Notes: generated from the letters alone by a model not told the origin. Shown: positions 1,741-64,000, counted from the first letter of the stretch. The stretch is 64,000 bases of DNA from Bilabrum cf. latius (GCA_965178125.1 OZ237775.1:62001-126000), one strand, 5' to 3'. Numbers and translations: made by a program.

Positions 1741-4521
1741 TCACGCCAGCCCCGCCTTGGCCCTCTTCTTCTCGTGCCCGTTCATGGCCTTGGCCAGCTT
1801 GTTCCTCTGCCCCTTGCTCAGTTCATTGCCCTCCCCGTCATGCGTGGGCACCCCCTTGTCGTCCCACTGCGAGAACTTGCCCCTGTGCTCCGCGAACGCA
1901 TCGCTCGTCCCCTTGAACATCTCCGCACCGGGCACTGCCAGCTTGGCCTGCTTGAGGGCGGCCGCCCGCTCCCTCTCCTCCGCGGCCTTGCGCTTGGCGG
2001 CCGCCCTCTCCTCCTGCGCCGCCCTCTTCGCCTCCAGCTCCTTCATCAACGACTCCGGGTCCTCCAGCTTCCACCGGGAGTCCCCGCTCTCCCCCTTGTC
2101 CTCGAGCCGAACACCGAGCCGGGGCAGAGCCTCGTCGCGCACCGCATCGCACGCGCGCCGCACCGCAGCCTTCACGTCCTCCTCCTTGAGCGCCCCGCGC
2201 ACGCTGGCCCGGAAATCCCGAAGCGCGTCCAGCACGGGCCCCAGGACCGCTTCCCTGTCACCGGCCCCCGCCCCCCCCGCGGCATCGTCATCTTGCCCCA
2301 GCATGAAGCCCAGCCTGGGCCGAGGGTCAATGAGCCCGAAGCACCGCAGAGTCCTGGTCAGGTACTGCACTACGGCTTGCACCAGGGCGGGGACAGCCCC
2401 CTGCCCCTTCTTCTCCTGCTCGCCCATGTACCGGTTGGCCGCGTTCACCAGCCCCATGAGCGCCTTCATCGCAGTGGGAGTGTCAAAGTCGTCTGCCAGG
2501 GCCGCACGCACCGCCTCCTGGGTCTCCAGCAGAGCAGTTGCAACCACCCGCTCCCCCACGCCCCACACCTCGGCCGGCACAGCGCGCAGGGCGCCGGCAG
2601 CCGCTGCGAAGTCAAGGGCCGGTTTGGCCGCCGGTTCGCTCGCCCCCGCGCCGGAGGCCGCCGTCCCCGCCACGGCCGCCTCCATCTCCGCCAGCCTGGC
2701 TGCATCCACCACGGCCGTCCCGATGGCGTCCATGGCCTTGTCGGTGGCGCTCTGAGCGTCCCTGAGCACCGCTTTGGCCGCCCCGAAGAACTGCGCCAGC
2801 TGCCTCTCCTGACCCACGGCCGCCTCCATGGCGTCCTTGGACCACGTCAGGGGGGCGTTGTACTTGTGCGCCAGGAAGAAGAGGCGCACCTGCCTGGCCG
2901 AGTGCTGCCCCGGGCCCGAGCCCACCACGTCCTTGATCTTGAGGAAGTTCTTGAGGCTCTTGCTCATCTTCTGCCCGTCGATGTTCAGGTGCCCGCTGTG
3001 CAGCCAGTAGTTGACCCACTGCCGCACCCCCAGCGCGGCCTGCGACTGCGCCACCTCGTTCTCGTGGTGCGGGAACTTGAGGTCGCACCCTCCGCTGTGG
3101 ATGTCGAAGGGACCAGAGGCAGCCAAGGCGTACCTGGGGTTCGAGGGGTTGCGCGGGTCATCCAGTGGCACGGCAGCACCCTCGGCCCCCGCTGCCTCCT
3201 CCTCACTCTTCCCGTCTCCCTCGGTTGCACCACCCTGCGATGCACCCGCCAACCGCCCGCCCACGGAGAGCCCCGCGCCCCACCCGCTCCCCTCCCCCGA
3301 GGGCAGCCTCTCGGCGGCGGGGCAGTGCGCAGAGGGCCGTGGTGCCCCCAGCACCGCGTCATCCCTCTCAGCTAGCGAGAGACCCCCGAATGCAGAGGCG
3401 CTCATTGCGCTGCACTCAATATGCCAGCCTGGCCTGCCCATGCCCCACGGGCTCGCCCACTCCGGCTCCCCTGGCTTGCTGGCCTTCCACAGCGCAAAGT
3501 CACCGTCGGATTTCTTCTCGGCCACCTTGGGCCCTCCCTCCCCCTCCCCCTCTCCCCCCCCCTGCTGCTGCTGGGAGAGCACCCCCTCGGCCTCGGCCAG
3601 CAGGGCCTTGCCCTCTTGACCCACGTTCTCTGGCACCAACACACCGTAGGGGGCACGAGCACCGGCGCCGCGGGCCCCCGGTGCACCTCCCGCCCCGCCC
3701 TCCTGGGATGACCCTCCCCCTTTGCCCTTGCCCTTGCCCCCCTTCTTGCCCTTGCCCGGGGCGCCTTGCTCCCCTACCGGTGCGGGCTCCCGCTCGTCGT
3801 AGGCCGCCGTGTCGAAGTACACGGACCCGTTGCTTTCGTACGCCATGCCCTTGCGCTGGATCTCCAGGATGAAGGCGATCACCTGGTCCACGTGCTCGCT
3901 CACACGGGTCACCACGTCGGGGCGCTCCACGCCGAGCTTCGCCATGTCGCGGTCGAACTCGAGCTCGTAGTAGCGAGCCAGCGTGCTGAAATCAACGCCC
4001 GTTTCGTTGGATCTCTTGATAATCTTATCTTCGATATCCGTGACATTTTGGCACAGGAGCACGTGGTAGCCGAAAAAGTCTCGCATGATGCGCCGCAAGA
4101 TGTCGAACGACAAGTACGTGCGCGCATGACCCAAATGTGCGCTGTCATACACCGTCGGACCGCACATGTACCACAGCACCTAGTTTCCTCGGATAGGTAC
4201 GAATGGCGTCTGCGAAAGAGGTTTTGAGACGAGCAGCGAAGAGGTGGAGTGCGAGGCCGCGGGAACATGGATGCAAATACAAGTCCAGACACAAGTCTGT
4301 TCGGCGTGGTGAGGGTACCGCCGATTCACTGCCATATTCGAACATCATCTTACCTTCGTTCGAGTCAAAGAGTTCATCATGTTTAGCGGGTACGCAGTAG
4401 CAAAGGTTCCACGGAGCCCCCCCGCTGGCCGCGGCATGATCCATTGCGCCAACCGCCTTTTCTATCGCTTATCCTGATCATCCTGGCCAGCTGCAGCAGA
4501 TGATGCGGCTGTTGACGCCAT
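1741..4521 (-). CDS. CARS1: Cysteinyl-tRNA synthetase; intron 4353-4210; in-frame TAG at 4462-4464 and 4180-4182
   Basis: Motifs NSLTRTK|TPFVP..WYMCGPTVYDSAHLGHAR, DFALWK, GRPGWHIECSAM, DIHSGGCDLKFPHHENE and KMSKSLKNF. Ends in TGA. Carries Gly/Ala-rich insertions. Confidence 0.96.
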
Positions 4522-4665
4522 TTCAGAACTACTTGTCACTGTGGCTGCGCCAGCGCAGGACAGACACGATCCGCAAGAAAAGATGTGCTCCGGATCCCAC
4601 AATCTCGCGCGAGCATTTGGTGCCCAAACGATGATTGTGCTGTTAGCAGTGTACTAATCAAAACT

Positions 4666-5853: not shown

Positions 5854-6019
5854 TGTACTTCGGGGTTAGGCTGCGTTCGTGCGTTGGCATTGGCGCCGCT
5901 GCTCGGCGCCAATGCGAGGATGAAGATTATCGACCTGATAGCATTGCATAACAGCAAACCGAGGCTACCCGGCATCCTGCTAGCGCTACGAAAATCTCAG
6001 AAAGGTATTTTTTGCCACA

Positions 6020-6776
6020 ATGGGGCGAGACAAAGGGTCAAATCCCGTCGAGGCTCACAGGCGCGCGCAACGAAAAAAACAAGCAGCCAAAGAGAAGAAA
6101 CAGCGCACGTAGGTTCGCGAAGTGGCGTTAAAGCACCGGGATATACAAGACCTGCGCGATGAAGTTTTTAGAGCAAAGATGGGCATCAAACGTGCTCCGT
6201 TGGGGCCCCAACGTGTACAGCTGGAGATGCACGTGGACAAGCTGCAAGCGAAGCTACGGACCGCAGTTCGAGTGCAGCACGGAGACGAAGCTCTTGCTAA
6301 AGAGATAGAGCGCTAGCGAAAAGAGGCGGCAGACGAAGTTGCCGAGCGCGAGTAGGCCGAGGCAGCAGAGGCGCCGGGTGGAGCACTGGAAGACGAGGCG
6401 CAGCGAAGGGCACGAGAGGCCGAGGAGGCACAAGCAAGGCAAGAAGCAGCCGCAGAAGAAGCTGCTTTAAAACGACAAGCCATGGCATTCATGCCATCTA
6501 ACCTTCGACGCAAATAGAAGCGAGCGAGAGCACAGCAGCAACCCAATACTCTCGCCAGCTAGCGAGCAAGTGCTCCCGCCAGCAGTGCCAGTGGCACGCA
6601 AGCAGTGCCTGACGCTACATCGTCTCCCATCATTGCTCCCATAGACAGCAAGTTGCCCGAACAGCCTGCTTCGAAACGCGCTAGGATGGAGGTGGGCAGT
6701 AGTGGGAAGGTAGGCGCAGTCCAGGCACAGGGCAAGGCGCAAGATGCAAGGGGGGGCGATTTACTCACGATCGATT

Positions 6777-6829
<53 letters not shown>

Positions 6830-7336
6830 GTTGGTATTGGGGCGGGATCATCGCTCCAGCCCCGACCTGCAGCTGCCATGGCATCCACAGCATCGTCATC
6901 TTCCACGTCTGCCTCAACTCCGACCCCCATCTAGCTATCTGCTGTCGATTTGCTGGGACTACCCTTGCCCGCTGCTCCCACAAAGACTGATACTGAGCCT
7001 AGGCAGATGCCTCAGTCTCAGGCTGCGTCCCGATCCAAGCCACAGGCCCCTGCCCCTGCCCCTGCCTCCGCCCCCGCCCCCGCCCCCGCCGTGCCCCACC
7101 TGTCAGCATCAACAGCGGTTAAGGCAACTCTGGCCCAGGAAAATTTGACTCGCCATGATGCAGGGACAGCAAAGGGGGGCGAGACCAGCGAAGGCCACCC
7201 AGCCCAAGGTGAGGCTAACGGGGTGCGTGGTGGCATGGGAGGTGCAATAACGAATGGTACTAGTAGCACCGAGGCTGAAGGAGCCAAGGACGCAGATGCA
7301 GCGCTGCAAGACCTGTTCGCCATGGACACGGACTGA
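6020..7336 (+). CDS. WBP11: WW-domain-binding protein 11-like splicing factor; six in-frame TAGs (6110, 6314, 6353, 6515, 6560, 6932)
   Basis: The N-terminus MGRDKGSNPVEAHRRAQRKKQAAKEKKQRT*VREVALKHRD resembles the Wbp11 domain, and AFMPSNLRRK resembles the FVPTALRV motif. One frame runs to TGA. Confidence 0.72.
6779..6829 (+). repeat. (ATGGGC)n microsatellite encoding a Met-Gly run
   Basis: Directly visible hexamer repeat inside the WBP11-like CDS. Confidence 0.95.
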
Positions 7337-7365
7337 AGGAGCCATGCCTGCGGGTATGAGCGGGT

Positions 7366-9007: not shown

Positions 9008-10405
9008 ATGCATGCTTGTCGGAAGTTTTTACGCCATACGAACCGTCTGTCTCCTCGGATTAGTTCGCATAGGTTTCTTTCTTCGTAGAGCAAAGCCCCA
9101 ACCGCAGTTCTCATGATGAACATGGGCGGTCCCTCGTCACTGGATGGAGAGCGCGATGGCGTGAAGCCTTTCCTGAGTAGATTGTTTGCTGATGGAGAAA
9201 TAATTCAATTTGGGGCGTTCCAGAACATTCTGGTGAGGCAAGCTGTTGCATCGTCAGCACGATCACTTGCTCCTCGCCCCGCCATCGATCTTGGATGGAA
9301 TTGAAGACTCAATTCGCAGGGACCTCTTATTGTTAGCCGGAGAACAGATAAAGTTAAGAAGCAGTACTCAGAGATTGGGGGCAAGAGTCCCATCGGAGAT
9401 TGGACAAAGCTGCAGGGCGAGGGGATGGTGAAGCTGCTAGATGAAATGCGCCCGGAATCTGCACCGCACAAAGCGTACACGTGCTTTCGCTACGCGCCAC
9501 CTCTTACGGAAGATGTAGTAGAGCAAATGCGAGCGGATGGAGTCAAGCGAGCCATCGCGTTCTCCCAATATCCTTAGTGGAGCTGCACTACTGCAGGGAG
9601 CAGCATGAACCACCTGTGGAGAGAGCTCAAGCGGCTGGGGGCCGAGGAGGAATTCGAGTGGAGCGTCATCGACCGCTGGCCCACACACCCCACGTACATC
9701 GACGCGCTCACCCGCCGCGTGGAGATGGGCCTCGAGCAGCTGCCCGAGGGTCCAGCTAGGGACAATGCCGTGATCATGTTCACCGCGCACTCGCTGCCAA
9801 TGTACGTGGTGGAGAGGGGGGACGCATACCCGCAGGAGGTGGGCGCCACGGTGCAGGCAGTCGTGGACAAGCTCAAGGCATCCGATCGGAGCCGCTCCGT
9901 GAGGCACGTGCTCACATGGCAGAGCAAGGTGGGCCCCCTCCCCTGGCTCGTCCCGCAGACTGGCACTGCCCTCAAGCAGCTGGCGGCCCAGGGACACAAG
10001 AGCGTGTGCCTCGTGCCCGTGGCCTTCACCTCGGACCACATCGAGACCCTGTACGAGCTGGACATCGAGTACAGGGAGGAGGCGGAGGAGGCCGGCATAC
10101 AGCACTTCGCTAGGGCGCCCTCTCTCAACGACGAGCCGCTGCTGCAGCAGGCACAGGCGGAGATCGTCAAGGAGCACCTGGACGCTGGCGAGCTGTGCTC
10201 CCCACTGTACCAGCTCAACTGCGCGGGGTGCACCAACCCGGCCTGCAGGTCGATGCTCAACCCAGTGGGCGGCAAGTACAGCAAGCTGAGGCACAGCACT
10301 GGTGGGGCCTCCTGCGTGGAGCAGTGGCCCCCAGAGGGCGACAAGGGCACGCCGCAGCAGGCGGCACTAACTGGCGAGCGCGGCCTCTCGCACATCAAGG
10401 CGTGA
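9008..10405 (+). CDS. FECH: Ferrochelatase, mitochondrial type with a C-terminal Cys (2Fe-2S) motif; intron 9233-9319; TAG at 9086-9088 and 9575-9577
   Basis: Motifs [67 protein letters not shown] and CAGCTNPAC. The N-terminus looks like an Arg/Ser-rich presequence. Ends in TGA. Confidence 0.96.
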
Positions 10406-11483: not shown

Positions 11484-13819
11484 TCAGGGCACAACGCACC
11501 TCGGGAAATCGTCCCCGAAGTCGCCAGTCTCCCCCTCCTCGCCCACAAAGGCATAGGAAGACGAAACCGACCCCTCAGAGGCGCCGTAGGTGGCCAGCGA
11601 AGCCGCTGCCTCGTCCTCCTGGCCCCGCCCCACGGTAGGCCTCCTGCTGCCGGCAAACAGAGCGCGGCCGGGGCTAGAGGCAGCGCTGTGCTGCCGCACC
11701 CAGCCCACTGCTCCCCCGGCCGCTGCACCCGCGCGCCCCGCCTTGCGCATGAACCTTGCCCTTGTCGGGTCCTGGCTCAGCAGCTGGGTGGGGTTGCCCG
11801 TGCCCATGGGCGAGAACCGCGCCGAGGAGGCCCGGGGGGCGGCGGCAGCCACGGCCTCGCCGCCAGAAGCGGCCCCGGCAGAAGGCACGCCTTCGGGTGC
11901 CGCAGCCGCTGCTCCCGCGGGCTTGCGGTTGAGCTTGATGTGAGCGGAGAGCAGGTCATCCGTGGTGAGCGCTGCCATGAGGGAGAGCTCCCCCGCCAGC
12001 ACGGTGCCGCCCACGATGCGGGCCAGCTGCTCGGCGTTGGCGCCCGGCCTCTCGTGGTGGGCCCCCCTGACTCCCAGCATCTCGAGGCAGGCTGCCTGCG
12101 CGGGGAGGGACGTGCCCCCTCCCACGGTGCCCACCTCGATCGAGGGCATGGTCACCGAGGCGATCACGCCGCCCTCCTTGCCCGGGGCCGTGTCGTGCTC
12201 CAGCAGCGTGATGCACTAGGAGGACTCCACGTTCTGGGCGGCGTCCTGTCCAGTGGCCAGGAACACAGCAGTCACCAGGTTAGAGGCGTGCGCGTTGAAG
12301 CCCCCGACAGAGCCGGCCATGGCAGACCCGATGAGGTTCTTCCTCACGTTGAGGTCCACCAGCTTGTCCGCGCTCGTCTTGAGCACGTGGCGGACCACGT
12401 CGGCGGGGATCCGGCACTCGACGGTGACGCTCTTGCCCCTGCCGTCCACCCAGTTGATAGCGGCGGGCTTCTTGTCCGTGCACAGGTTGCCGCTGAGAGC
12501 GAGCAGCTCCGCGTGCGGGAAGCGCCCCCCCTTCATGCGCTCGAGGGCCGCGTGCACGCCCTTGGTGATCATGTTCATGCCCATGGCATCGCCAGTGGCG
12601 CACTTGAACCGGATCCACACGTTGCGGCCCGCGGTGGTGACTTGCACGCTCTGCAGCCTCCCGAACCTCGAGGTCGAGTCGAACGCCTCCTTGAGCTCGC
12701 CAAAGCCCTCGTCGCTCTCCGCCCACTGCTTGAGCTCGGCTGCCTGCAGGGCGCTGTTTACGCGCAGCAAGGGGGCGCGGGTCATGCCGTTCCCCACCAC
12801 CACACTCGTGGCCCCGCCTGCGTCTGCCATGGCCCGGAAGCCCCGGTTGGTGGAGGCGACCAGAGCGCCCTCCGTGGTGGCCATGGGCACGCGGTACTGC
12901 ATGCCGTCCAGCAGCAAGGGACCGGCCACACCCACAGGGATGGGCATGTACCTGCAACGCAAGCGCGGGAAATGGGGTCGTGAGTAGAGGGGCGTGGGTG
13001 GCATCGCGGGTGGGAGGCAAGGAAGGGTGGAGGCAGGCGCACAGCAACGTCGCGACCCTCGCACAGCAGGCCGCAACTAAAGATGCAAGGCACGCGATTT
13101 ACCAATCATAATGCAGCAATGCAGGGCATCGAAAGCAATTGCACTTGCGCGTGCCGGCAAGAAGCCAGCGCCGGGCACCGGCTCAAAAACCGGACAGTCT
13201 CGAAAAAGCGTCTCACCCAACAACATTCTCGCAGTTGGAACCCTGGATCGACGAATAGAACTCGTTGATATCAAATGCTGCTGAAGGCAAGCCGTTCACA
13301 GCGGACTGTGCGTCCGTCCCGACTGGGGACAGCGGGCTGGCGAGGTTCCTCTCGAGAAGCAACCGGCGCAACTGGACGGCGCGCACCGGATCGCCCAACA
13401 GCTGCTCCAGCTTGTGGTCGGGCAACTCTCGTTTTACCAAGCGATCCATGATTTCGTCGTTGCTCAAATCTGCCACGGACGTCGGGGACTGCGAAACAGA
13501 ATGAATCACTCCGATACTGGATGGAAGGAATGGTCTTGGCCAACGGATGCAAGTCCGGCATAGTCTGCCAGCAGGGGACCAATGACTGATTCAGGCACGA
13601 GATATTACCAAATATTGTAACTTATACAATATCAACGCTAAAGGCCCGTCTCACGCTTGCTTGCTGGGACGGAGTTTCCGACTTCTCGGAGGTCGACGCA
13701 GCAGCCGCTTGTGGCTGCATTCCGGCAGTCGGGGTAGTTGCTCTCCACCTTCGAGCAGCAGAAATGCCAACAGCGCTCCTATATTTAGAAGCCAAGCCAC
13801 GGATCGTGCGCCCAAGCAT
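11484..13819 (-). CDS. HMGCR: Class I HMG-CoA reductase lacking the membrane anchor; introns 13654-13489 (tentative) and 13216-12952; TAG at 12216-12218
   Basis: Motifs [69 protein letters not shown] and GELSLMAAL. Ends in TGA. Confidence 0.95.
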
Positions 13820-14010
13820 GGCTACAAGCGATGGAAAGTGCTTTTCGGAGCCGGGCTGCAGGTGAACAGGACAAGTCTCGGCTTTTGTTGCGTGGGGTAT
13901 TAGATATATTGCAATTGTTTTTCAGTGAACGTTCGCTGATGCGGGATTTTTGTTGATCGTGCGTAAACTCACATTTTTACCCACCAGAAAGGACCTATCC
14001 TCGTTCAAAA

Positions 14011-15355
14011 TTATGTACCGGCCTTTGCATCATCAGACACAACCCTGTCTTCCAATCCCGCTCCGTGAGCATACCCACACAGCGCATCCAGCACTCCCTG
14101 CAGGTCCGCCCTGCCCTTGCCCCCCGTGTACACGCACTGCATCTGCCGAATCGTCGCGCTGTCGCCCCCCCTCTCGCTGGGAGGCCGTGCTGACGGGCAC
14201 CTCTCTCCAGAGGGCAGCCGGGCCGAGCACAGAAACCCAATGGAGGCGTCCTGCGGCTCCCCTCCCTTGCACCCCCGCAGGCAGACCACCCTCACCCTCG
14301 TCAGGTCCGTCCACGGCTGCGGAGCGCTGCCCTTGCGCGGGAGAGACACAGAGCCGGGGGCCAGCATCACCTCCTCCGTCATGCACTCCGGACAGAGTGG
14401 CCTGGCCTTGAAGCGCGCCCCCGCAGTGTGGCACACTGGGCAGTGGGCCTCCAGCCCCTCCCAGGTGAGTCGGCATGCGTCCAGGTCCACGGCCTTGAGC
14501 ACCACGTGGATGATGGACCCCTCCTGCAGGCCCAGGGCGCGGGGGGCGAGCCCCGGGTCGATGACTTCCTGCCTGTGGATGAGTCGCAGGGCCGTGGGGG
14601 GCCTCCCCGCCGCGGGTGCCACGTGTGTCTCGCACACAGAGGCGAGGGGTGCACCGTAGGGTGCCTCTGCGCGGATGCGGCCCCCGCTAAGCATCTGGAA
14701 CACAAGACCTACACTCTCGGGTTCTGCCTATTCGGCTGCTGGTGTCGAGGATGACGGGGCTGCCGATTCTCCGCTGGCACCTGAGGTGCTTGGGCCACCG
14801 GCACTGGTCGAGGCGGCTGGGGCGGCGGCAGCCAGAGGCGCAGATGGCACAGTCGGTGTCAACACTCCGTACCCAATGGTTGCCACTGCTGCTTGATCGC
14901 TGCCACCTCCACCATCGCTCCCAGTAGCACCAGTTGCCTCAGAATCTTCTCCTGCTCGCTCCTCGGCAGCATCCAGGCCAGGCCATCGCTTCGGTGGGCC
15001 TGATGCAGGGTCATACACTAACTTTTGGTCGGTTCGTATTATCATCATTGCACTTTCTCGTTGAATTCCAAGATCTTCGAGAACGTCGTCTCTGCCCAGC
15101 AACTTCCTGTTGAAAATAATACGTACAAGGCCTGGACCCAGCCCATACGTCTCAGCAAGCGCATCGTACAATTCACCAGATGTCTTCTTTACATCAAAAT
15201 CAAAATGGAACGCAGTTCCTGCGAAATTGTCGACATATCAGGGTGATTGGGCAATTGCCAGCGTCCAAGAATGAGACACGAACGGACGAGACCCTGCAAG
15301 GCTCACCATTGCTTTGCTTGAACGGCAGTGACTGAATTGAACCAACCGATGCCAT
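14011..15355 (-). CDS. Protein with two ubiquitin-like domains and a Parkin RING0-like Cys-rich domain; intron 15306-15219; TAG at 14728-14730
   Basis: Ubl1 is LVRIIFNRKLLGRDDVLEDLGIQRESAMMII and Ubl2 is LRLIHRQEVIDPGLAPRALGLQEGSIIHVV. These are followed by CPVC..KARPLCPEC..PWTDL..CLRGC..GFLC. Ends in TAA. Confidence 0.7.
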
Positions 15356-15392
15356 TCCTGTCCGCCAATAGGCTAGTCTGACTTATATTCGT

Positions 15393-17995: not shown

Positions 17996-18353
17996 TATCA
18001 GCTAGAATCGCTCTGATTGCAACATTTCTCGCCCTCGAATCATGCATTTTGTTACGTGCAATATGAATCGGCCGTCGAGGAAATTCGGATCCAGCTTCAT
18101 CGGCCATCGGAGGTCCCTCGATTCAAAACGAGCATCTCCAGAGGACACTCTGGTGATTTGAGGGAAGGCCGCCTGCTCCTAAGGCTTTCTTTCTTTACTT
18201 TCTGAAGGCTGGGCTTGCCTGGTCATCGATTAGGCTTGCACACGTTGCACTGACCGCATCGAGAACGTGGCGTGCGTTGTTGTGCACAGAAACAAGGTGG
18301 TGAACTATCCATATCGCTGACCTTAGCGAACGAAGTCGCTAATTGTGATTAAT

Positions 18354-28903: not shown

Positions 28904-28935
<32 letters not shown>

Positions 28936-40332: not shown

Positions 40333-40348
40333 CTAACCCTAACCCTAA
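40333..40348. repeat. Short interstitial telomere-like repeat CTAACCCTAACCCTAA
   Basis: About 2.7 units of CCCTAA, immediately preceded by TTTTAGG in the opposite orientation. Confidence 0.5.
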
Positions 40349-43800: not shown

Positions 43801-44195
43801 CAGCTCTCGTGTTCCCCTTCGTGTATGTGAGGACGCGCGCGTCAACGTTCCGGTGGCTGTTCGGGGTGATCGTTGTGGGAGTGACAAACTGGATCGTGAG
43901 GAAGTGCATCTTCCGGGCATGGCTCGTGATGCCCCTGCGACTGAGGAACACAAGGGCATTCCTGCTCCTGGAGGGGATGTACTCAATCACTGCGGGCGTA
44001 CTGGCGGGTCTCGTGAGCGGGTGCCTGCGGATGGCTCAGGTGGTGATGTGGAGGATCATATAGAGTGCGAGGTTGGACGTGCCGCAGCTGCCGGGGCCAC
44101 TTCGCAGAGCTGACAGGGGTTTCTCAGCATATGCCGCTGCTATGCGTCTGCGCATGTACCGTAATGTGCACCTGCTCGACCACGGGCTTGGTTGA
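40865..44195 (+). pseudogene. STRA6-like copy 3 with a 2-nt deletion near 41747 (frameshift), a 3 x 21-bp expansion and an internal deletion
   Basis: Copy 3 reads agcggcg-ccgtgggtg where copies 1 and 2 read agcggcgggccgcgggtg, so the reading frame switches. It has ASQFLPV/ANQILPV/ASQFLPV at about 42060-42122 and lacks the IQQMTREED...DAVGA segment near 43146. An assembly indel cannot be excluded. Confidence 0.6.
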
Positions 44196-44402
44196 TAGCC
44201 GTGAGCTAGTGATGGGTCCTGCCTAAAGTCCGGGCAGCCGGTACGAGCTGGCGGTTTTAATCTTCTTCTTGAAAGTTCAACACGCTGGACTAGACCTCTA
44301 GTGTAGTTAGGCCAAGGCGAGCTGGCGGTCGCAACCACCTTGACCTTCGTCCGGCGCTTCTACCAACCAAGTTGCAGACCCTCAGGGATATACCCTGGTG
44401 AT

Positions 44403-47099: not shown

Positions 47100-47330
47100 G
47101 TTACTATGGTCAGTGGGCTCGGCTGGCATTGTGCTTGTGTTGTGCCCAAGGCACGAAGGTGCACGACATTGTCCTGTCGTTGCGATTTTGTGCTGGTTTG
47201 GTACTGTTCACGCAAGGATATCCCAAGCGTTCGATACAACTTCAAAAGGTACTCAGCATTTATTTCTGGTTCTGGATCAGTGCAGCCTGAGTTAGCTTTG
47301 CTTTGACCTGAGGTACTCGAAGGTGCAGTG

Positions 47331-50300: not shown

Positions 50301-50387
50301 AGGGACGGGGCTGAGGGTGTGATGGGCGGTAGCGGGGGTGGGGGTGGGGAGGGGGAGAGGGGAGGGGGCCAGGGCGGGAGGCAGTGA
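47331..50387 (+). CDS. nrdJ: Class II adenosylcobalamin-dependent ribonucleoside-triphosphate reductase (monomeric type) with an N-terminal presequence-like extension; TAG at 47508-47510
   Basis: Motifs FLPPGRGLW, ALNNCAF, LGVGVGFD, VVSGNVRRTAEI, GGNPCLEQTLESYELCCLVE, RNRRIG, TCIKPSGTVSLLAG, WADNQVSCTVTF and the C-terminal FCDADGC. Ends in TGA. Confidence 0.95.
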
Positions 50388-50615
50388 GACTGCACGTGAG
50401 GGCGGTGGGCCGAATGCGATGTACAGACACACGGGCTGAAAGAAATGCTAGTATTGTATGCACTGCTGAATGACCCGATTTTTGCTGCACAAAGACACCA
50501 AAAGCGAAGTGGTGCCAGTTGCATTGATGATCGCCGCAACTGCTGTGACTCCGAGTCGTACTCAAGAACGAAACGCGAATCGATGCATGGTGAAGTCATC
50601 TGGGTTGTTGTGGGC

Positions 50616-52931
50616 ATGGCAGATGGGGATAATATTTCGCGAAAGTATCCTCCTGATGCCGATTACCTGCATGCAGAGCTTGTTGAGCGCATTGATGTAA
50701 ATGGCGGTACGGATCTTCGATTGCCGTCGTCGCTCACAGAGGGTCAGATGGAGATGCTGATGGATTTCTTGCAAAAGAGACCGCAGCTGAAGCATTTAAG
50801 TCTGCAATATGGCCTGAGGCTCGAAACTGCAGTGATTCTGGCGGCAGGGCTCCAGCGAAGTCGACACCTGTAGGTCTTGACAATCTCCTGGAATCCAGGC
50901 CTTGGTGATCAAGGTCTCACCGCAGTCCTGTAGGCGCTTGAAATGCATCCTAGTATAAATTAGCTGCATTTGGCCGGTCTCCACTGGAGCCATGCCGGTA
51001 TTGAGGCGCTTTCAGTGTTGATTCGAACTTGTCGGGAGCTGGAGCTTGTAGATGCTCGGTTGATGAAAGTTGCAGACGACAGGGAGCCACTGAAAGACGG
51101 ATACTTGGAAGCAATAACCTTGTTTGCACGGGCACTTGCTCAGCGGGGACAGAACAAAATGCAGCCTGTCGATCTTGATGTGGGCGGCTGCTCATCAGAT
51201 ATCTTGCACCCTAGCATAGGCAACTTGCTTGGAGCCTTTGCGAAGCACGGAAGCCAGGCTGGGATAGGTCATCTTTCGTTAAATGAGTCCAAATTGACTG
51301 CAGCACACATGTGCCATATCGCTCGTATGGTGGCACCTGGTTTCAGCTGTCATGACCTGCCTGTCGAGGGTGACTTTCTGGGTCCGGATGGGCAGGTGCA
51401 GCATGATCAAGTCCGCGGCTTTGTAGAAGCCAGATCCAAAGACGACCCCTTGGAGGTATCGCAGTTGCCCCCAAAGAGCGCTCTGAAACGGCTGTCTCTC
51501 GACAAGAACTCCCTGAATGGTCCCAGCTGCCTCTTGCTCGCTCGGGCACTCTCCCAGAACGACACGCTCGAGCGGCTGAGAATGAACGACAACCCGGTAG
51601 GCGCGCTGGGAGCAGCCGCAATCGCCGTTGCACTGGAACATTCCGCGCGACTCAATGCTCTCCACCTGAGTTCGGGCACTGTTCCTGCGGCATCTGCCGG
51701 ACAGGTGTTTGATGCGGTGGGCCTGAACTGTGCGCTGCATGAGCTTCGGATAGAGACAGCAAGGCCACCCGAGGGAGACGCGGTCGATAGCTTGTGCCAG
51801 GCGCTTGTAAAGCACCCCTCAATGCGTGGGATCAGATGGGACGGCTTTGCCTCCAGGGAGGACCCCGGGGTGGGTGGCTTCCTGCGAGCGATCGCAACGG
51901 CCCCAGTTTTAGAGAGGTGCATCATACCCATGCCCAGGCACCCCAACTTTACGCGAATCGGTAGAATCGTCGGTAAGGCCAAGCTTCATGAGAGATTCCA
52001 GCCAATCCTGGCGGCATGCGCGACACTGCCAAGTGCACCCGGCGCATCAGCCGCCGAGACTAGAGTCGCGTCTCAATTCCAGGGCAAGCCCGCTACCGAG
52101 AGTCCTCTGGGCCGCTGGATGGGGATTGAGTATGCCACCTCAGTGCTGCGAGCCTCGTTCAATGAGGAGCAAAAGGCTGCGTTCGACGCTGCGGAGGCCG
52201 CGAGAAGGTGTGCTGCGGGCCCGTGCAAGGAATAGACAGGCCCCGTAGTGCCGCAACCACTTTTGTGCCCATGCCCTGACGCGGCCGCCTTTTTGGCCCG
52301 CGCTTTAGACCCAGTGTGGCGACATGTGTGCAATGATGCTGCATCGGGGGCAGGGGCGGGCGCTAGCTCGGGGGCAGACGATACAGCTGCGCCTGACATG
52401 CGGATGATGCGTGGGTGCCTGCAGCTGGCATTGGCACTCGAGGCCATGGGCAGGGGCACGGGCGATTTTGCGGCATACACGAGAATGGATCTAGATCCAG
52501 ATGTAGCAGCTGGATGTGCCCGTGTGGCACGATCACGCATGTGGACTGCGTTGCGCTCGAGCGGGTGCATCCGCATGCTTCGCGCCATCTCAGTCGAGGG
52601 AAGGAGGGGTAGGGGCGCGGTGTGGGCCAGGTTGTTCCCTCTGTGGTGTGGGGTGGAAGAGGTGCTGAGTGCGGAGAGGGCGAGGGGCTTGGTGCGATGG
52701 AGGCATGGACTGGAGGCCAAGAGGGACGCTGGGATGGTGTTCCAGGCGGCGAATGAGGGCAGGCCTTTAGAGCTGGCCAGGAGGCTGAGGCTGGGCAAGC
52801 TGGCGGGCGGGCTGGAGATGGAGGGAGAGGTGGAGGACGGGGCGGGCGGGACGAAGCTTGTTGGTCCGCTGGAGGCAGCTCGATTGGGAGGACACGACGA
52901 TTGCGTTAGGGTGTTGGAGGGCATGCATTGA
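50616..52931 (+). CDS. RI-type LRR protein with a C-terminal ankyrin-like motif; TAG at 50871, 50931, 50961 and 52233
   Basis: Three track ORFs share one frame. Repeats include LKRLSLDKNSLNG and LERLRMNDNPVGALGA, and PLEAARLGGHDDCVRVL is ankyrin-like. Ends in TGA. Start uncertain (50445, 50583 or 50616). Confidence 0.72.
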
Positions 52932-54364: not shown

Positions 54365-54485
54365 TGATTGATCCGGATCGATGCGAACACACATGCATAT
54401 CGGCGGATGATCTGTGGCTCGCATGCCTCCCACTGATGATCGGATACTTCCAAAGCTCACTATCTGCCCTCCTGCATCGCACTCG

Positions 54486-56347
54486 TCACACCAAATGCCC
54501 CCGCACCTCTACGCATCCACGCCAGCGCCCCGTTGCCCCGACTCACCGCCGCCCACCACTTGCCCAGCTTCTCCCCAGCATACACCACGCTCCTGGACAC
54601 CCCCGCCGAGCACACGCCCTTGATCGTCTATCCAGCCGCCGCCCGCCCCACCGCCCCCGCCAGCGTTGGTCGCAGTGCGGCCGCCAGCCGGTGCCTAGCA
54701 GCAGCTCCCACTGCCGCCAGAGAGCCGGCCACAGCCCTTTGGCCCGGGCTGCCCCTCAGGCGATGCAGGCCCCCTACCAGGCCCCTCGAGGTCGCCCCCA
54801 GCAGCCTTGCGCGCAGAGCGCCCAGCCCCGTGCCCACGGGTGCGTGCGCCAGCTGTGCACTCCCATGGGATGCACCGTGCTACCCGCCATCGCCCCCATG
54901 CGCCTCATGCCCCCTTCTCTCTCTTGCTCTGGCCACCGCCCTCCTCGCCCTCGCCCTAGCCACCCGGGCTTCGGCCCAGCCTCGCCGCCCCAAGGCCAGC
55001 CCCACACGAGCGACGGCGGCGCTTCCGGCCCGGCCCGCGCCGCCTCTCACATTCGCACTCGTCACAGCAGCCTACCCAGCCTCGGCCAGCAGCTCCGCCG
55101 GCTCGAACGCCCGCCCCACGGCCCCCTCCGTCAGCGACTCCGAGTCCCTCCAGGCGACCTCCTGCTGCACCCACTGGGGCAGCCCCCCCAGCAGAGACAG
55201 CCCAGCCTCCGGCCCGTCCGCCTGGAACAACACCTCTTGCCCCGTGACCCGGGAGAGGAAACCACGCTCGGCAAACCACGGCGAACCTTCGCCCTCCAGT
55301 GCAGCGGGACCGCCCTTCTCCTGCTCTTCCGCCCCCTCACTCTACCCCTACTTGTCCGTGTCTCTGTACTCATCCACCAGCTCCCCCTGCAGCAGCCCCT
55401 TGCCCTAGCCATCTCCCCCCGAGCCCCATTCCGACTGCCCTCCCCCCTGTGCTATGCCGAGATACACGCTAGCAATCGCCGCCCTGTTCTTCCTCACGAT
55501 GTTCATCACCTTGTCTGGGTGCTCCCCCAGCAGCATCCGCCAGTCGCCCGCATACGACAGCCCGCACACAGAGGCACACAGCTCGTCCAAGGTGAAGCGG
55601 GGAGGCAGGAGGAGCAACGCCGCGCGGAGAGCTGCCTGTCTGTTCCTCAGCACCGCTCGGTCCAAGTCGGGTCTGGTGCGGAGGACCCGCACCGGCTTGT
55701 GGAGCCTCCCCGCGGCGTACAGGGAGGTCCAGGAGGAGCAGTCCGCCGCGAGGTCCGTCGTGGAGATGACGCCGTACTTAATGCGGGGCCACGGGCTAGA
55801 AGAGGAGGAGGAGGAAAATGATGATGATGATGATGATGATGAAGGGTGCTCGTTTCGCTTTACGGCTGCGGTGGGTGCAGGGACCTGCGAGCATTCGAAA
55901 GAGGCGAATAGGATTCATTTGCGGTGGCGCACTATGCAGAAGGGTTTGCTAGAGTGAGTGGGTGCATCTAAGTGTACTTACCAACGCATTGTACCACATT
56001 CCAGCGCCAAACCCAGTTTGCATCATTGAAACAGCCTTAGGACCGAGGTGGCCAGCGCCTGCGTAGTGATCTCGGTGCCTCCTAAAATTTTCTTCATGCC
56101 ACGCAAGGGGATCATCCACGGCAAAAATCATATCAACCATAGGTGGTGGTCCAGAGAAATCTGCGAAAGTACCAGAGTAGATTCTATTGCGATCCGAAAT
56201 GGTGGCCCCGAAGAATAGTAGGTGCAACTGCCTGCTGCATCGCTCACTGGCATATCCATCCTATTCAAATACGCCGCTACCGTATGCTATACCAAATGAA
56301 ACACTCGGGAAGCACGATAGAATATTATCAAATTTTATAGACGGCAT
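54486..56347 (-). CDS. TAM41: Mitochondrial phosphatidate cytidylyltransferase Tam41; introns 56247-56161 and 55981-55885; seven TAGs (56261, 55405, 55348, 55342, 55072, 54880, 54628)
   Basis: Motifs AYGSGVFE*DG, MVDMIFAVDDP..WH, KYGVIS, LYAAGRLHKPV, LSYAGDWRMLLGEHPDKVMNIV and *TIKGVCSAG..YAGEKL. Ends in TGA. Confidence 0.92.
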
Positions 56348-57428: not shown

Positions 57429-60400
57429 ATGCGCGACGAGTCGGCGACGACGAGCCCAGCAGCGAATCTGCACGGTACTACAAGCGAATCTTGTTTGCGT
57501 AGATTCGTCGATCCGTTGAAAGGCCTGACAGAAGATTATCGCCCAATTCTCACTCGTACTGATAAGTCGAGAACATACACCGAGATAAAGAAGGCTCCAT
57601 TCTATACGTTACCTCTGAACGTAAACATGTCAGGCTCACAAGACGGCTCATCAGCATCATGGGATGAGGAAGATCCTCGCACGTGGATCGTGACGGCAGT
57701 CACTGCCGCCCTATCGGTCATTGTATCTCACCTTGCGTGGTGGATTTGGTATCGATGCGTTATATCGTCCTTAAACAGGTCAAGTCCCGCCGCTGGAGGG
57801 CTATACGAGGGTGCCGCCCTTGCCTGGGAAATGTACGGCGATTTCTCTGGCGAAGCTGCTGACCCTGTCAAGGCTTTTGTCTGTGATATAGCGCACGCAA
57901 TCGCCGTAAAACGGACTAATGAGACGGTTGAAGGCATCGCAGATGGTGAACAAGCGTTGCGGTCGCCGAGACCGTTCAATTCCAAGGAGTCAGCGCGTCC
58001 AGCTCCATCTCCCGTTCCATCCAGTCGGTCAGGGGCAAGTTCAGAGCGACTTTCTAAAGGAGGTTCGGGAAAGCCAAAGTTTCTGTTTGACTCCCTTGCG
58101 AGCATGGAAGAAGAAGTCCAGTCTGGCCTGACCAAGTCCGAGGCTCGCGAGGTCATGGTTCGCCTTGGTCGCATCATGAAGAAGGTGACCAGCCCGGTGC
58201 GATCGTGGCTCGGGTGGATTCTATGCGACTGCCTGGAAGACTACCGCTACAATGTGGACAGCTTAACTCCGGAGAACAAGCGCAAAGTTGTCTTCGGCAT
58301 GATCGACGAAGATTTCAAGCTCGATGACTCCGACGAGGACACGAGCTGCATGGGCGAGCTGCGCCACATGCTCTGTTGCTATCGATGCGGACCATGCGTG
58401 CCGTCCTGCAGGGATGCGTGCTGCTGTTGGTCGTCTTGTGCTGACTGCTGGGACGGCTGCACCTCAGACAAGGGCGCGTGCGGATGCTGCTGCACCTGGC
58501 TTCCCGAGACCTACTGCTGCCGCTCCCCCACACCAATGGCCCCCGCGAGCAAAACGTACAAGCTGGTCCTTGCGAGGCCCCTTCTGGAGCCAATGAAGCC
58601 GCCGCTGCGTGGAACTATCCCCGAAGTGCAAGCCATCCGCGAGTGGACAGAGGTATCGAGCGACGCGCTGGCACCATCCCACCCGCGCCGCCCGGACAAA
58701 GTGTGGAACCACGGCCCCTGGCGGGCTATGGAAGAGCTCACGCAGGAACACCGGCCCGCGCTGCAGACGCACATGGGCGTGTGGGAGCTCAGCCAGATAA
58801 GGCTGGTGCCGTCCATGTCCTCGAGCATGACCTTGGGCCTGCGAGTACAGCATGAGGCCGGTATGGGCGAGGTGCAGCCCCTCACACCGGGACATGCCCT
58901 GAGTTTCTCGGACTTTAAGGAGGGACGCGTGGTTGTGAAGGTGGACAAGGCGTGGGGCACAGATGATTGGGACGCTGACGGCAGCTGGAGCCTGCACCTA
59001 TCGCCGCGTTTCGATTTCCGTGGCAATGCCCGGCGGGGTGCAAGTCCGACGGACGGTATAGCGGGCAGAGGCCATTTTACAGATGGCGTTGTAGTTGATG
59101 CCGTGCCCTTGACTGGCCTCCACCTAAAGATCCCGGTGGATCCTGGCATGAAGCTGCTGCAGGAGCTGGTCATGAAGAACCGAAAAACGTTCGCAGAGTC
59201 CATGCTGGACTTTCAGTTCCTTCAGCAAGACCGTCACTCTGGAGCCGCAGCAGGCAGACATGCCCGCAGTCAGTAGCGCCCAACATCTGCTCCATTGTAG
59301 GAAATGTACCGGGAACTCATCCTCACAGAGGCAGTACTAGTAGGTCACGAGGCGCACGCAGGCCTCCGCCGGCTAGGATCGGACGGGCGCGGAGGCAGGA
59401 GAAGGTTGACGAGCGGCACTGGTGTGTCGCGTGTCGCCTCGGTGAAGCGAGCGGCAAGCAGAAAGACACACCCGAGAGAACAAGGTCAGCACTCAAACGG
59501 TGCTGCTGCGGTGAGCTCCATCGCAGCAGGCCGTGCGGCCCGCGCGCCCATGGGCATGCTGCCACCCGCGTCGGGAGCAGGTGAGACCAGGCCCGCACCA
59601 TTTGTGCCACACAGTGGAGGAAGCAAGAGCATTGGGGGCGGCTATGGGATGCACGCTGGTACCGGGGGCATGATGGAAGCAGCATGTCGTGGAAGCTGCG
59701 AAGACCCAGCGATCGCACCGGATGCAGCTAGCCCGAGCGCTGTCGTGCCACTGGTTGCGCCCAGTGGTCAAGCCAAAGCCAGCAAACATGATCAGAACGC
59801 CAAAGGTTCAATCAAGGTGCGTGAGCTTACCCCGGAGGAGAGGGCAGCCGATCGTGAGCTGTCCGAGACCATCCAGTCGATGGACTGGTCACCGATGTGG
59901 GAGGAGCTGCTGATGCTCAGGGGCGGGTCTCACTAGTACTCGGCGCTCTACGAGGAGAACCTTGAGCAGGCAAGGAAGACGGCACGGGAAAAGTTCGGGC
60001 GCAGCATCGAATGGGCCTCCGCCTTTGAGGACAGGGACCTGTTGTCTCTTCCAGGGGGTGGATCCGGGACCGAGATGCTGGCTCACCATGGAGGTGCTTC
60101 ACGTCAAGGGCTAGGGCCTGTTGTCCACCGCCGGCAGTCCTCTGTAGACTTTACCGGCGGGAACTTTGCTGTGGGTGCCGTGCAATTGGAGCAGCTGATC
60201 CCTTCGTCCGACTCTGCTCGAGTGGTGGTGCAGGGGGCTGCCGGGACGGGCAAGACTACGCTGCTGAAGCGCCTTGGATACCTATGGGCGACAGGGCCTG
60301 GATATGACGTGCCAGTGGAGGCTGATACACGTGACGTGGCTTGCTGGCAGCAATTTGACCTGGTGATGCGGGTGGATCTGTCATCCATTGTGTTCGAAAG

Positions 60401-63400
60401 CGCAAGTACCTTCAGTGATGTGCTTGCGATGGTGCTAGGTCGGTCAGCGGACTCTGCAAGCGTCGGTAAGATGGTGCGTATGGGAGAGGTACGACTGCTG
60501 TTGCTGCTGGATTCTCTCGATAGCTGCTCGCACACTGAGAGCGACAGCTACAAGTGCGCAAGGCAGCTATTGCAGGGTATTGCGCCACCTAGCGTCTCGA
60601 TGGTCGTGTCTTCCCGACCTGTGAATCAGCCCCTGCTACAAGGTGATCAGTGGGCGTTTAGCCGGTGCGTGTAGGTGAAGGGGCTGCCAAGCTCCGAGGT
60701 GGAGGCATTCGTGCGCATTGCAGCAAGTAAGATATCAATGGAAGACTAGGTGGATGCAGTGCTGCAGCAGCTGCAGGCATCGGCTGATATGTGGCGGCAT
60801 GCCCGTGTCCCTGGCCAGCTCGAAATGATGTGTAACATCCTGCTGCGACTGCAGCTGACACAGCAAGACGGTAGCCCAATCAGCACGGCAAGGCCAAGGA
60901 GCGGGACTGCCGCTAGCACCAGCTCCGCGTCGCCCCCCGATAGCCCTCTCAGGGCAAGCTCCGCCACGGTCTCGACTGGAAACTTCACCGCCATGTTCGA
61001 CCTTCACCTGGGCCTGAATCTAGTGCGCATGGACAGCGCCAGGGTGGCAGGGCGGGAGGGACGCAGACAATTGCAGGTCGGTGGATGCAGCCGGCTGCTG
61101 GAGGAGCGGTATTTTTCCAATGCGACCAGTGGCCGAGACGTGCTGCTCGCGGGGCTCGAGTCAACTAGCCGGTTCGCTGAAGTGGCTTCCAAGGCAACGG
61201 TGCGAGCCACGAGATGGCAAATGATCGAAAAAGAGCTGGTAGAGCATGTGGAGAGGGCATAGAAGCTCGGCATGGTCGAGTTCGAGGGCGAGGCGCATCT
61301 CCTGGAAAACTTCCGATTCCCCCATCCTCAGTTCGCTGACCTCACGCTAGCGTGGGTCACGGTGAAGCGTATGCTGGAGGCGTCGGATGGAGTGGATCCA
61401 AAGGTGAGCATTCGGCCTATGCAGCCGTTCCTGGACTTGGTGGAGCGGCGGCAGCATTCTGGCGTGGCTGTCCTAGATGACACTAGTGACGAGGCAGCAA
61501 GCAAGGATCCGGGTAGAAACTCTGTTGAGGTGCCGGCGCTGATCTCCGAGTTGGCAAAGCAAGCAGTTTCTGATCATGGAGATTCTGACAAACCGGGGCG
61601 TCAGCTCAAGTGGCGATTCGTGACCGGGCTGCTCTGCAGGTACTGCTCTCGCCCCGTTGATTCGCGCGGCATGGTCAAGTCTGACAGGCTGGCACTCGAT
61701 ACTCAAATTCTGAGGCTTTGGGTACTTGCACTGGCGATCGAAACATGCACGGTGCTGTAGGAGCCAGCGGATGCGCTGGCAGTGCTCCTGCCACACGTGG
61801 ACGAAATTGCCGGGAGTGCAATGGTCAATGGTGCTTCTCAGGGCCTTGCGCTCGCCGATGTCGTTGGTTCGTCCATTGTGCCCGATATGTACTGCGCTGC
61901 CGTCGCCACCGCTAACCTTGATCTTGCGGCGGCCCTAGCCATTTATCTGGAGGCATAGAGTGGTGCTGCTGGTGACACAGGCGGAACTGACGTGCTATTG
62001 CAGCCGTGTCTGTTGCATAAAGGGTAGCCCGCTGCGGTGGTGCTGTTTGGGCTACTGGATGCGGATCAACTGCTCGAGCTCGAGTAGCTAAAAGCTATTG
62101 TTTTGCGCGGTCTCGCTGTTCAAACTCCTGTGGATGATGGATCGGGCCGACTAGATCTAGATACAAGGGGTGGTGAAGCTTCAGCCGATGCAAAAACTGC
62201 CGATGTGGGAGCTGCTGATGCGACAGCTGCCGATGTGGGAGCTGCTGATGCAACAGCTGCCGATGTGGGAGCTGCCGATGTGGGAGCTGCTGATGCAACA
62301 GCTGCCGATGTGGGAGCTGCCGATGTGGGAGCTGCTGATGCGACAACTGCCGATGTGGGAGCTGCCGATGTGAAAACTGCTGATGTGACAGCTGCCGATG
62401 TGGGAGCTTCCGATGTGGGAGCTTCCGATGTGGGAGCTTCCGATGTGAAAGCCGCCGATGGCAGTGAGGGCACTGGTGATGGTGGGACTGCAGTCGGATG
62501 CTCGTCTGTAGACCAGGCTTTGGCTTTGCCACTGCAGGATGTGCTTGCATCGGTGGTCTCTAATCGCGATTCGAATGTGACCAGAGTCGCGCTTTCGTGG
62601 ATTGCAGAGTCTGAGGCTGATGCGGCCGCGTCAAGAGTTGACTTGCCCGCTCTGATCAAAGTAGCAATAACTCATGGGCGCTGCATGAATGCAGCCATGT
62701 TGCTTGCAGCAGCGTGTCGGTCGTTCCCTGAAGGTAGGTGGCTGGACGCATGCTCCTGTCTGGTTGACGCAGCTACCTCAACAAGCAATGCATTTGCCCT
62801 ACAATCAATCGCGCTTTCTGTGGCGGATCCGGATGTTTGGAAGGCTCTGTGCAGCACCCCGTTCGCTCTGGTGCTCCTCGGCCGCTGCGTCCAGAGGGGC
62901 GATAACGACCGCGGTGGTGACTCGCACGAAGAGAACGAAGCTGCGCGGGGTCGCATTGCAGAAGCACTCATGCAGCAGAGGATCCATCCTGACATGGTAC
63001 CATGGAGACTTACGGACAAAACGCTACGGACCGTAATCGTCCGTCAATCAATTCTGAATACCTGTGGAGTCCTGACTCGTGATGATGAGTCCGCTGTGTC
63101 TGATGGGGATGTGCAGTTGGCCTCTAAAATTGTTGCCTGGACTGCAGTGGCCAGCGAGACAAAGATCTAGCCCGATACCGATGCACCGCTTCAGCGGAAA
63201 CTTCTAGCCGATGCACTGACAAGCCAGGGACCAGTAGAGATCCATCGCGGCCTCATTAGCACTGGATTATTGCTGCACGGGGCAGACGATATGACCTGGC
63301 GATGGCTAGCTGAAGGAATTGTCCGCAAGCAGCGCTCTTGTTCGTGCCTCCTAGAGAAAAGTGCTCCGCCTGTCTGGCAGTTGCAAGCGTACCCTCAGCT

Positions 63401-64000
63401 TGCGGCTCGTGCCCTTAAGGCTGCTTTGCAATGGATGCAAAATCGCGACAACGATAGAGCCGCGGCACCGCGGAGCATCGGATGGCTCGATTTTACCACC
63501 ATTAGTACAGTGAGCCGGGGCGGCGGTGGCACAGCACTCAAGGCGAGCGAGGATGCAACAGGGAGTCTGCGTGAATCCGACTCTTCTTTGAACAAAGTTC
63601 CGCCTCGACCAAAACAAGTGTCGCGCGAGCCTCCCGTGCTCGAGCTCAATATGGCCAATAGTGACCTTGGATCGGGTGGACTTGCACCCGTTGTAGCTAC
63701 CCTTAGGAAGCTATCGTAGCTGGAGACTCTGAACCTGCCCTCCTGCAACCTTCATGACAAGGAGGCGACTGCCTTAGTGGATTGCATGGAGGCCATGACT
63801 AAACTGCTTCGCCTAGATTTGTCAGGTAACTTTATCACAGGGAAGGGCAGTCGTGCAATTGCCGGAGTTTTGTCTAGAATGCCAAACCTGCAACGACTGG
63901 ACCTGTGTGGCATTCAGATAGACTCAGAAGGCGCCTGGGCTCTAGCGTAGTCCTTGACCGTCCATACAAGTCTGAAATACCTTAATGTGTCCTCTACAGG
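57429..64000 (+). CDS. Giant NLR-like protein: N-terminal TM helix, Cys-rich region, NACHT NTPase, pentapeptide repeat and RI-type LRRs (3' end outside window); 13 in-frame TAGs
   Basis: Seven track ORFs are all in one frame, with no TAA or TGA across about 6.6 kb. Walker A GAAGTGKT (about 60234), Walker B LLLLDSLD, VVSSRP, FPHPQF, and LRRs from about 63640 (LRLDLSGNFITGKG, LQRLDLCGIQIDSEGA). The start may be 57429 or 57627. Confidence 0.85.
62197..62460 (+). repeat. 15-bp-unit coding minisatellite (ADVGA/ADATA/SDVGA pentapeptides)
   Basis: Repeated gctgccgatgtggga and gctgctgatgcaaca units. Confidence 0.93.

Follow-up and report, generated by a model that had tools for sequence, protein, structure and literature searches.

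What does the triplet TAG mean in the protein-coding genes of the DNA analysed here, a stretch of 64,000 nucleotides (OZ237775.1:62001-126000; hereafter the window) with a G+C content of 62.0%? Once TAG is read as sense, about 23 eukaryotic genes can be followed along the window, whereas with the standard stops they break up into shorter open reading frames (ORFs). Nuclear genomes seldom depart from the standard code, and still more seldom in a way that treats UAG and UAA differently. A preliminary description of the sequence had claimed that TAG is read as glutamine. Our analysis makes it highly probable that UAG stands for glutamine in cytoplasmic translation, with UGA as the main stop and UAA as a minor one, which corresponds to NCBI translation table 15. 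Three independent lines of evidence point to glutamine: conserved alignment columns, the exchange of TAG with CAG in two kinds of relatives, and the presence of UAG in spliced transcripts.

In-frame TAG codons and the residue they specify

The 21 ORF units considered here, counted from the first ATG where possible, comprise 16,408 codons, among them 79 in-frame TAG, 478 CAG and 129 CAA, with no internal TAA and no internal TGA. TAG accounts for 79 of the 686 codons of the Gln family (~ 11.5%), and the total lies within error of the ~ 80 in-frame TAGs in ~ 23 genes described before. Counted in all six frames, ~ 128,000 triplets include 336 TAA (0.26%), 813 TAG (0.64%) and 1527 TGA (1.19%), corresponding to a random expectation of ~ 43 TAA, ~ 104 TAG and ~ 196 TGA for 16,408 codons. 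TGA and TAA are wholly excluded from the gene frames and TAG is not, a difference beyond chance. Alignments to Pfam families and to Protein Data Bank (PDB) chains continue straight through the in-frame TAGs. The counts rest on ORFs and homology; a scan for coding potential that ignored stops proved too noisy, overrunning true stops and picking up off-frame repeats.

Some TAGs within stop-to-stop frames are non-coding. One in the frame of HMG-CoA reductase (HMGR; 13077-13079) sits in the intron 12950-13214, which is spliced from the transcripts, and two upstream of the AspRS start (17995) belong to the leader. Two further TAGs in the exon-1 frame of Tam41 (55951 and 55798) lie beyond the homology and are probably intronic.

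Five TAGs had been singled out earlier as diagnostic, one each in ferrochelatase, HMGR and AspRS and two in Tam41, and all five stand at the positions given for them (Table 1). The Tam41 sites, described as conserved Gln positions, fully deserve that description. At the first, Q is found in 138 and P in one of the 139 sequences that carry the YGSxxFx motif, of 150 representatives; at the second, Q is found in 34 and L in one of 35 motif-bearing homologues, these 35 standing among the 67 of 150 sequences at least 280 amino acids long. The ferrochelatase TAG likewise occupies the family Q that had been assigned to it (among 120 homologues, 105 have Q and 15 have H). For AspRS, the position of the TAG was correct, although the expected Gln occurs in only 29 of 120 homologues, with H in 87 and other residues in four; here it is the close relative that has Q.

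Close relatives are represented by two kinds of sequence. The frames of proteins from public assemblies are interrupted within continuous genes, evidently the result of gene calling with standard stops; these proteins display Q at each of the five window TAGs that they cover. A 98%-identical AspRS (P0011) has Q at TAG 17039, a 99%-identical ferrochelatase (P0125) has Q at TAG 9575, and three NACHT fragments from a single 6.7-kb contig, 84-91% identical to the window's protein, have Q at all three covered sites. All four relatives' frames that end within the alignment stop just before a window CAG, which suggests that these ORF ends are TAG.

The second kind is a metagenome contig (L001; 6,939 nucleotides, 56.5% G+C) that carries AspRS, a ubiquitin-like (Ubl) gene and HMGR in the window's gene order, at protein identities of 80%, 53% and 77%. 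Within its high-scoring segment pairs, the three genes contain nine in-frame TAGs, no TAA and no TGA, and UAG makes up 22% of its Gln codons. The window has CAG opposite six of these nine TAGs, and the columns concerned favor Q at PAN[TAG]AIM (Q in 108 of 120 homologues) and are divided at CLA[TAG]SPQ (Q 65, M 55). Conversely, the two window TAGs that the contig covers (HMGR 12216 and AspRS 17039) both correspond to CAG in it. Among 1,394 aligned codon pairs, 11 include a TAG, of which eight are TAG/CAG and none pairs TAG with CAC or CAT; CAG/CAA pairs also number eight, next to 15 CAG/CAG. TAG/CAG pairs are as common as CAG/CAA pairs, indicating that TAG and CAG replace each other as fast as synonymous codons do.

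As a control, 56 of 80 metagenome AspRS loci contain no in-frame stop. L001 is the sole locus among the 80 with a best-segment identity above 60% to the window's AspRS, and its only in-frame stops in this gene are three TAGs facing Q. Sequence comparison indicates that the trait is common to a small clade, with at least one related organism besides that of the window.

In-frame stops occur in 24 of the 80 metagenome AspRS loci (including L027, L050, L054, L058, L069, L070, L079, L059 and L043). Many of these contain TAA together with TAG, as in organisms that have recoded both UAA and UAG (UAR), and none is close to the window's organism. A few loci are nearly TAG-only; L079, for instance, holds ten TAGs facing mixed residues and one TAA.

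For the transcripts, contigs of X1, X5, X6 and X8, four runs that each come from a different study, were aligned on window positions 9000-28999. No letters differing from the window were reported for any of them over this 20-kb stretch. The X6 and X8 contigs, from two studies, join across 9232-9318, 12950-13214, 13489-13654 and 15218-15305, and those of X1 and X5 retain the same four stretches. The first stretch is bordered by GT..AG and the other three by CT..AC, which reads GT..AG on the opposite strand, with orientations that fit the genes; the four introns measure 87-265 nucleotides. The joints present in X6 and X8 and the stretches retained in X1 and X5 indicate that X6 and X8 behave as complementary DNA (cDNA). 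Twelve TAG codons stand unchanged in these spliced contigs (Table 1). Retention of UAG in messenger RNA, which the preliminary description had named as a point to check, is thereby observed at 12 sites insofar as the joints mark these contigs as cDNA: UAG appears to be kept in the mature message, not spliced out and not wholly edited.

The contigs display some further features. One X6 contig spans ferrochelatase on the plus strand and HMGR on the minus strand (9000-13488) with the introns of both strands removed, which suggests 3'-end overlap between the transcripts of this convergent pair. The Ubl transcript contigs of X6 and X8 end 12-29 nucleotides past the TAA (13982-14013, minus strand), which reflects either a very short 3' untranslated region or an assembly break. 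Runs X1-X8, from four studies, hold 73-100% of the sampled words of 9000-18999 under four coded organism labels, and about a tenth of the words of this segment also occur in further runs, whose labels include protist and algae metagenome. Possibly the organism is carried along in other cultures, or its labelling varies from run to run.

Remaining stops and rival readings

UGA is clearly still a stop. It ends 16 of the 20 ORFs that finish within the window (the remaining one of the 21 runs past the window edge) and never occurs in frame, against the ~ 196 occurrences expected by triplet frequency. UAA as a stop is also supported, though less directly and on a sample of one window. TAA ends four ORFs and is absent in frame, against ~ 21 expected if the CAA:CAG ratio of 129:478 is applied to the 79 TAGs. 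Past the TAA of the cytochrome b561 gene, the frame stays open for 102 codons, and the G+C content at third codon positions (GC3) falls from 0.62 to 0.50; past that of GH3, it stays open for 68 codons with a fall from 0.74 to 0.47. Stops of orthologues are alike in the window and L001, with the three pairs ending in TGA, TAA and TGA and Ubl in TAA on both sides. The earlier claim that UAA has remained a stop is sustained by the missing in-frame TAA, the four TAA ends and the drop of GC3. A code in which UAA and UAG both encode Gln (NCBI table 6), with UAA too rare to show in a GC-rich genome, would draw on the fact that TAA is the rarest of the three triplets in every frame; moreover, in the other two TAA-ended ORFs the next in-frame stop follows after one and four codons, where readthrough would hardly alter the protein. 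Given the deficit of ~ 21 TAAs, the fall of GC3 behind b561 and GH3, and three genes of the less GC-rich L001 that likewise lack in-frame TAA, we regard this code as very improbable.

Eukaryotes with stop codons of dual meaning have been reported, and UAG could be Gln inside genes and a context-dependent stop for some of them. A hint in this direction comes from five of 19 genes in which 0-43 codons separate the last TAG from the assigned stop (43 in the three tandem paralogues, 29 in GH3 and 0 in Tam41, where TAG directly precedes TGA), the 43-codon tails having a GC3 of 0.60-0.63 compared to 0.71-0.73 for the whole genes. In contrast, 14 of the 19 genes carry 133-958 codons after their last TAG, with a GC3 no lower than that of the gene as a whole. 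In both species the conservation of AspRS and HMGR extends through the C-terminus to a TGA, and Ubl is TAA-ended in both, with its last residues unaligned. In 15 genes, the mean relative position is 0.36 for TAG, 0.37 for CAA and 0.54 for CAG, and counts per gene quarter from 5' to 3' are 22/17/10/4, 42/17/24/10 and 57/105/99/107, respectively, leaving only four of 53 TAGs in the last quarter. TAG is thus 5'-biased like CAA, the reverse of the pattern of a leaky terminator, even if part of the 5' excess may stem from start codons set too far upstream. Such an ambiguous code seems improbable, if less so than table 6. Apart from this question, the skew of TAG and CAA, but not of CAG, toward the first half of genes seemingly accompanies a 5'-to-3' gradient in third-position G+C.

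That UAG encodes another residue than Gln (His, Glu or Lys, for instance) is scarcely credible. His is the major residue of the AspRS column (87 of 120) and a minor one at the ferrochelatase site (15 of 120, one of them P0126 at 74% identity), and homologues of CysRS have K or E at its TAG; yet the two Tam41 columns are almost pure Q, the relatives and L001 have Q or CAG at all five and both covered sites, and eight of the 11 TAG-bearing codon pairs involve CAG and none CAC or CAT. Equally far-fetched is an artefact or decay, be it sequencing or assembly error, pseudogenes, UAG-to-CAG editing or intronic TAGs. A few TAGs of stop-to-stop frames truly are intronic or in a leader, and X1, the best holder of the DNA, may be the window's own source. 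However, four runs from four studies agree over 20 kb without a differing letter, the TAGs persist in spliced contigs, the same frames are free of TGA and TAA, TAGs are conserved among paralogues, and a second species has an in-frame TAG set of its own.

Several points weigh against glutamine as the meaning of UAG, and are best considered together. Given the short distances between last TAG and stop in the five genes named above, TAG may have some terminal use. The AspRS column, mostly H in distant homologues, would not by itself pick Gln, and the TAG columns of CysRS (K/E) and GH53 (N/R/Q) are variable. Three of the nine L001 TAGs face non-Gln codons in the window (GCC, AGG and GAA), all in variable stretches. 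Gln neighbors beside TAG are not enriched (4 of 53 versus a background of 7.4%). The TAG ends of the relatives' ORFs are deduced from proteins, and X6 and X8 lack an RNA designation on record, their cDNA nature following from the joints. Contigs hide minority variants, and partial editing at TAG sites may occur. No tRNA gene was found in the window or in L001, and the eRF1 gene is not within the window, so that the decoding tRNA and eRF1 are predicted components. The identity of the residue is read from sequence. The comparison of the three tandem paralogues, 3-6% diverged, is neutral in this respect: their TAGs stand at the same columns, no TAG/CAG swap is found among them, and they are silent on the amino acid.

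UAG behaves as a third, minority Gln codon, and between related genomes a single C/T transition readily turns it into CAG or CAG into it. Other recoded eukaryotes serve as the analogy for the machinery: UAG would be decoded by a tRNA-Gln(CUA), probably derived from tRNA-Gln(CUG). The same analogy predicts an eRF1 that has lost or weakened its recognition of UAG and keeps that of UAA and UGA. No Rfam match was obtained in the 64-kb window.

Gene content of the window

Pfam families support genes for CysRS, cytochrome b561, Wbp11, ferrochelatase, HMGR, a ubiquitin-like protein, AspRS, a KH protein, GH53, UTP25, GH3, a class II ribonucleotide reductase (RNR), two LRR proteins, Tam41 and a NACHT-LRR protein. 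Coordinates are collected in Table 1, together with the TAG sites and the records of the spliced contigs.

Table 1. Genes, in-frame TAG sites and spliced-contig records, in window coordinates
Feature	Position	Strand	Details
CysRS	1741..4344	-	1 TAG; end TGA; Pfam PF01406, E 5e-103
Wbp11-domain gene	5939..7336	+	6 TAGs after first ATG; end TGA; Pfam PF09429
Ferrochelatase	9014..10405	+	exon 1 to 9231, intron 9232-9318, exon 2 9320-10405; 2 TAGs; end TGA
Ferrochelatase splice joint	9231>9319	+	GT..AG, in X6 contig
HMG-CoA reductase	11484..13828	-	introns 12950-13214, 13489-13654; end TGA; Pfam PF00368, E 1e-127
Ubiquitin-like (Ubl) gene	14011..15306	-	intron 15218-15305; 1 TAG; end TAA
AspRS	16184..17995	-	1 coding TAG; TGA end exactly at homologues' end
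KH-domain gene	18321..20813	+	6 TAGs after first ATG; end TGA
UTP25	23146..26733	-	7 TAGs; end TGA
Two lineage-specific ORFs	26775-30260, 30537-31943	+	no Pfam family; 7 and 3 TAGs; ends TGA and TAA
Three tandem paralogues	32312..44195	+	94-97% identical DNA; in-frame TAGs at same alignment columns
GH3, class II RNR, LRR genes	44205..52931	+	TAGs 3, 1, 4; ends TAA, TGA, TGA
Tam41	54457..56347	-	at least 2 exons; end TGA, TAG the codon directly before
NACHT-LRR gene	57429..63998	+	past window edge; 13 TAGs after first ATG
CysRS site IRGN[TAG]VLWY	4180..4182	-	variable column; PDB chains K, E, E, K
Ferrochelatase site SQYP[TAG]WSC	9575..9577	+	homologue counts in text
HMGR site NVESS[TAG]CIT	12216..12218	-	PDB 8ecg_A Q; 1dq8_A, 2q1l_A, 8pkn_A N (three chains, one protein)
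AspRS site FVEI[TAG]TPK	17039..17041	-	homologue counts in text
GH53 galactanase site AVF[TAG]FTEH	22546..22548	-	variable column; PDB chains N, R, N, Q
Tam41 C-terminal site G[TAG]TIKG	54628..54630	-	homologue counts in text
Tam41 exon 1 site YGSGVFE[TAG]DGY	56261..56263	-	PDB chains 6ig4_A, 7ecd_A Q
NACHT-LRR, three TAGs	60672-60674, 60747-60749, 61260-61262	+	relative's fragments P0246, P0247 Q at all three
TAGs in spliced contigs	9086, 9575 (ferrochelatase); 12216 (HMGR); 14728 (Ubl); 17039 (AspRS); 22546 (GH53)		
TAGs in spliced contigs	18558, 18702, 18855, 19827 (KH); 25105, 25111 (UTP25)		
UTP25 TAGs kept in spliced contigs	25105-25107, 25111-25113	-	X6, X8
X6 records			13 (ferrochelatase 9575, HMGR 12216), 15 (AspRS 17039), 16 (GH53 22546), 18 (UTP25 TAGs)
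X8 records			19 (HMGR 12216), 21 (AspRS 17039), 22 and 23 (KH TAGs), 24 (UTP25 TAGs)

At the start of the window (3-1190, minus strand), a TAG-free, coding-like frame runs off the edge; its weak match to MBOAT (E 8e-5) falls under the Pfam cut-off. The class II ribonucleotide reductase (47307-50387, plus strand) is of the B12-dependent type and stands on a eukaryotic nuclear contig, with matches to the Pfam RNR_Alpha, RNR-II insertion and barrel domains. The tandem paralogues (32312-44195) encode a large, Cys-rich and apparently membrane-spanning product that belongs to no Pfam family. Their third copy consists of two overlapping frames (40730-42133 and 41535-44195), indicating a frameshift or an intron.

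Placement of the organism and comparison with known codes

The best named matches of AspRS and ferrochelatase, at 55-62% identity, are stramenopiles (including oomycetes and Cafeteria) and a Symbiodinium entry, in a sample that is biased by the word-based search; they give at most a weak hint, drawn from sequence similarity, of an affinity of the organism to the SAR group (stramenopiles, alveolates and Rhizaria). No ciliate appears among the close named matches listed for these two proteins. The organism had been called non-ciliate before, which is reasonable in view of the 62% G+C, the 64-kb multi-gene contig, its four GT..AG introns and the missing close ciliate match. Amoeboaphelidium was considered as a carrier and ruled out: its genomes have ~ 40% G+C (PMC10608142) compared to 62% here, its reported code includes TAA, and the name is absent among the matches listed.

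We see about even chances that the window comes from an undescribed lineage, neither ciliate nor fornicate, that independently reassigned UAG to Gln at 62% G+C and comprises at least three taxa. These would be the window's organism, the public-assembly relative at ~ 84-99% protein identity, and the organism of L001 at 77-80%. No description of such a UAG = Gln lineage was found in the literature searched, with subscription journals and supplements outside the search. On this reading, the organism could become a workable model for how eRF1 discriminates UAG from UAA, since material of it seems obtainable: DNA-like and cDNA-like runs from four studies carry the sequence. A GC-rich, TGA-dominant, non-ciliate carrier puts to the test the view that the capture of a stop codon needs an AT-rich genome and heavy use of UAA. 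The turnover of TAG and CAG among relatives opens the age and dynamics of the reassignment to study. For annotation, gene callers with the standard code fragment these genes, as seen in the relatives' public proteins, and table 15 is needed for this genome and its relatives if fragmentary proteomes are to be avoided.

Reassignment of UAG alone to Gln is described for Iotanema spirale and for the ciliates Protocruzia tuzeti, Hartmannula sinica and Trochilia petrani (PMC11687900, PMC5304391), in agreement with the carriers named in the preliminary description, Iotanema and a few ciliates (PMC11687900). Iotanema spirale has the same table as the window, with UAG for Gln and UAA and UGA as stops, and it too is not a ciliate. 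It is an anaerobic flagellate with UAA as its primary stop (PMC5304391), whereas TGA ends 16 of 20 ORFs in the window, and the window holds aerobic mitochondrial genes (ferrochelatase, Tam41) at 62% G+C. The three ciliates also share the table 15 code. UAG makes up 18.5% and 31.8% of the Gln codons in table-15 ciliates, compared to 11.5% in the window and 22% in L001, and in those ciliates, as here, it is distributed along genes like the synonymous Gln codons (PMC11687900). Their stops are overwhelmingly UAA in that account, in contrast to the dominant TGA of the window, and further differences are that the window is a 64-kb contig of many genes, rich in G+C, and that its GT..AG introns measure 87-265 nucleotides.

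Codes in which both UAA and UAG encode Gln are described for many ciliates, Hexamita, Streblomastix, ulvophytes and Amoeboaphelidium protococcarum (PMC11687900, PMC5304391, PMC6299283). They resemble the window in the capture of a stop for glutamine, presumably via a tRNA-Gln with a mutated anticodon, and differ in that UAA is sense there as well, whereas the window has none of the ~ 21 in-frame TAAs expected. UAG alone has passed to other residues in the rhizarian exLh (Leu), in phyllopharyngean metagenome-assembled genomes from TARA (Leu) and in Scotinosphaera (Ser) (PMC5304391, PMC11687900). In these codes, as in the window, UAA has remained a stop while UAG took on a meaning of its own; here, however, the conserved columns and the exchange with CAG point to Gln. 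The code itself is thus a known one, and what seems new is its carrier, a clade with visible TAG/CAG turnover. GC-rich and TGA-dominant, with ordinary introns on a long multi-gene contig and with aerobic mitochondrial functions, it is unlike all the organisms named above in which UAG alone encodes glutamine.

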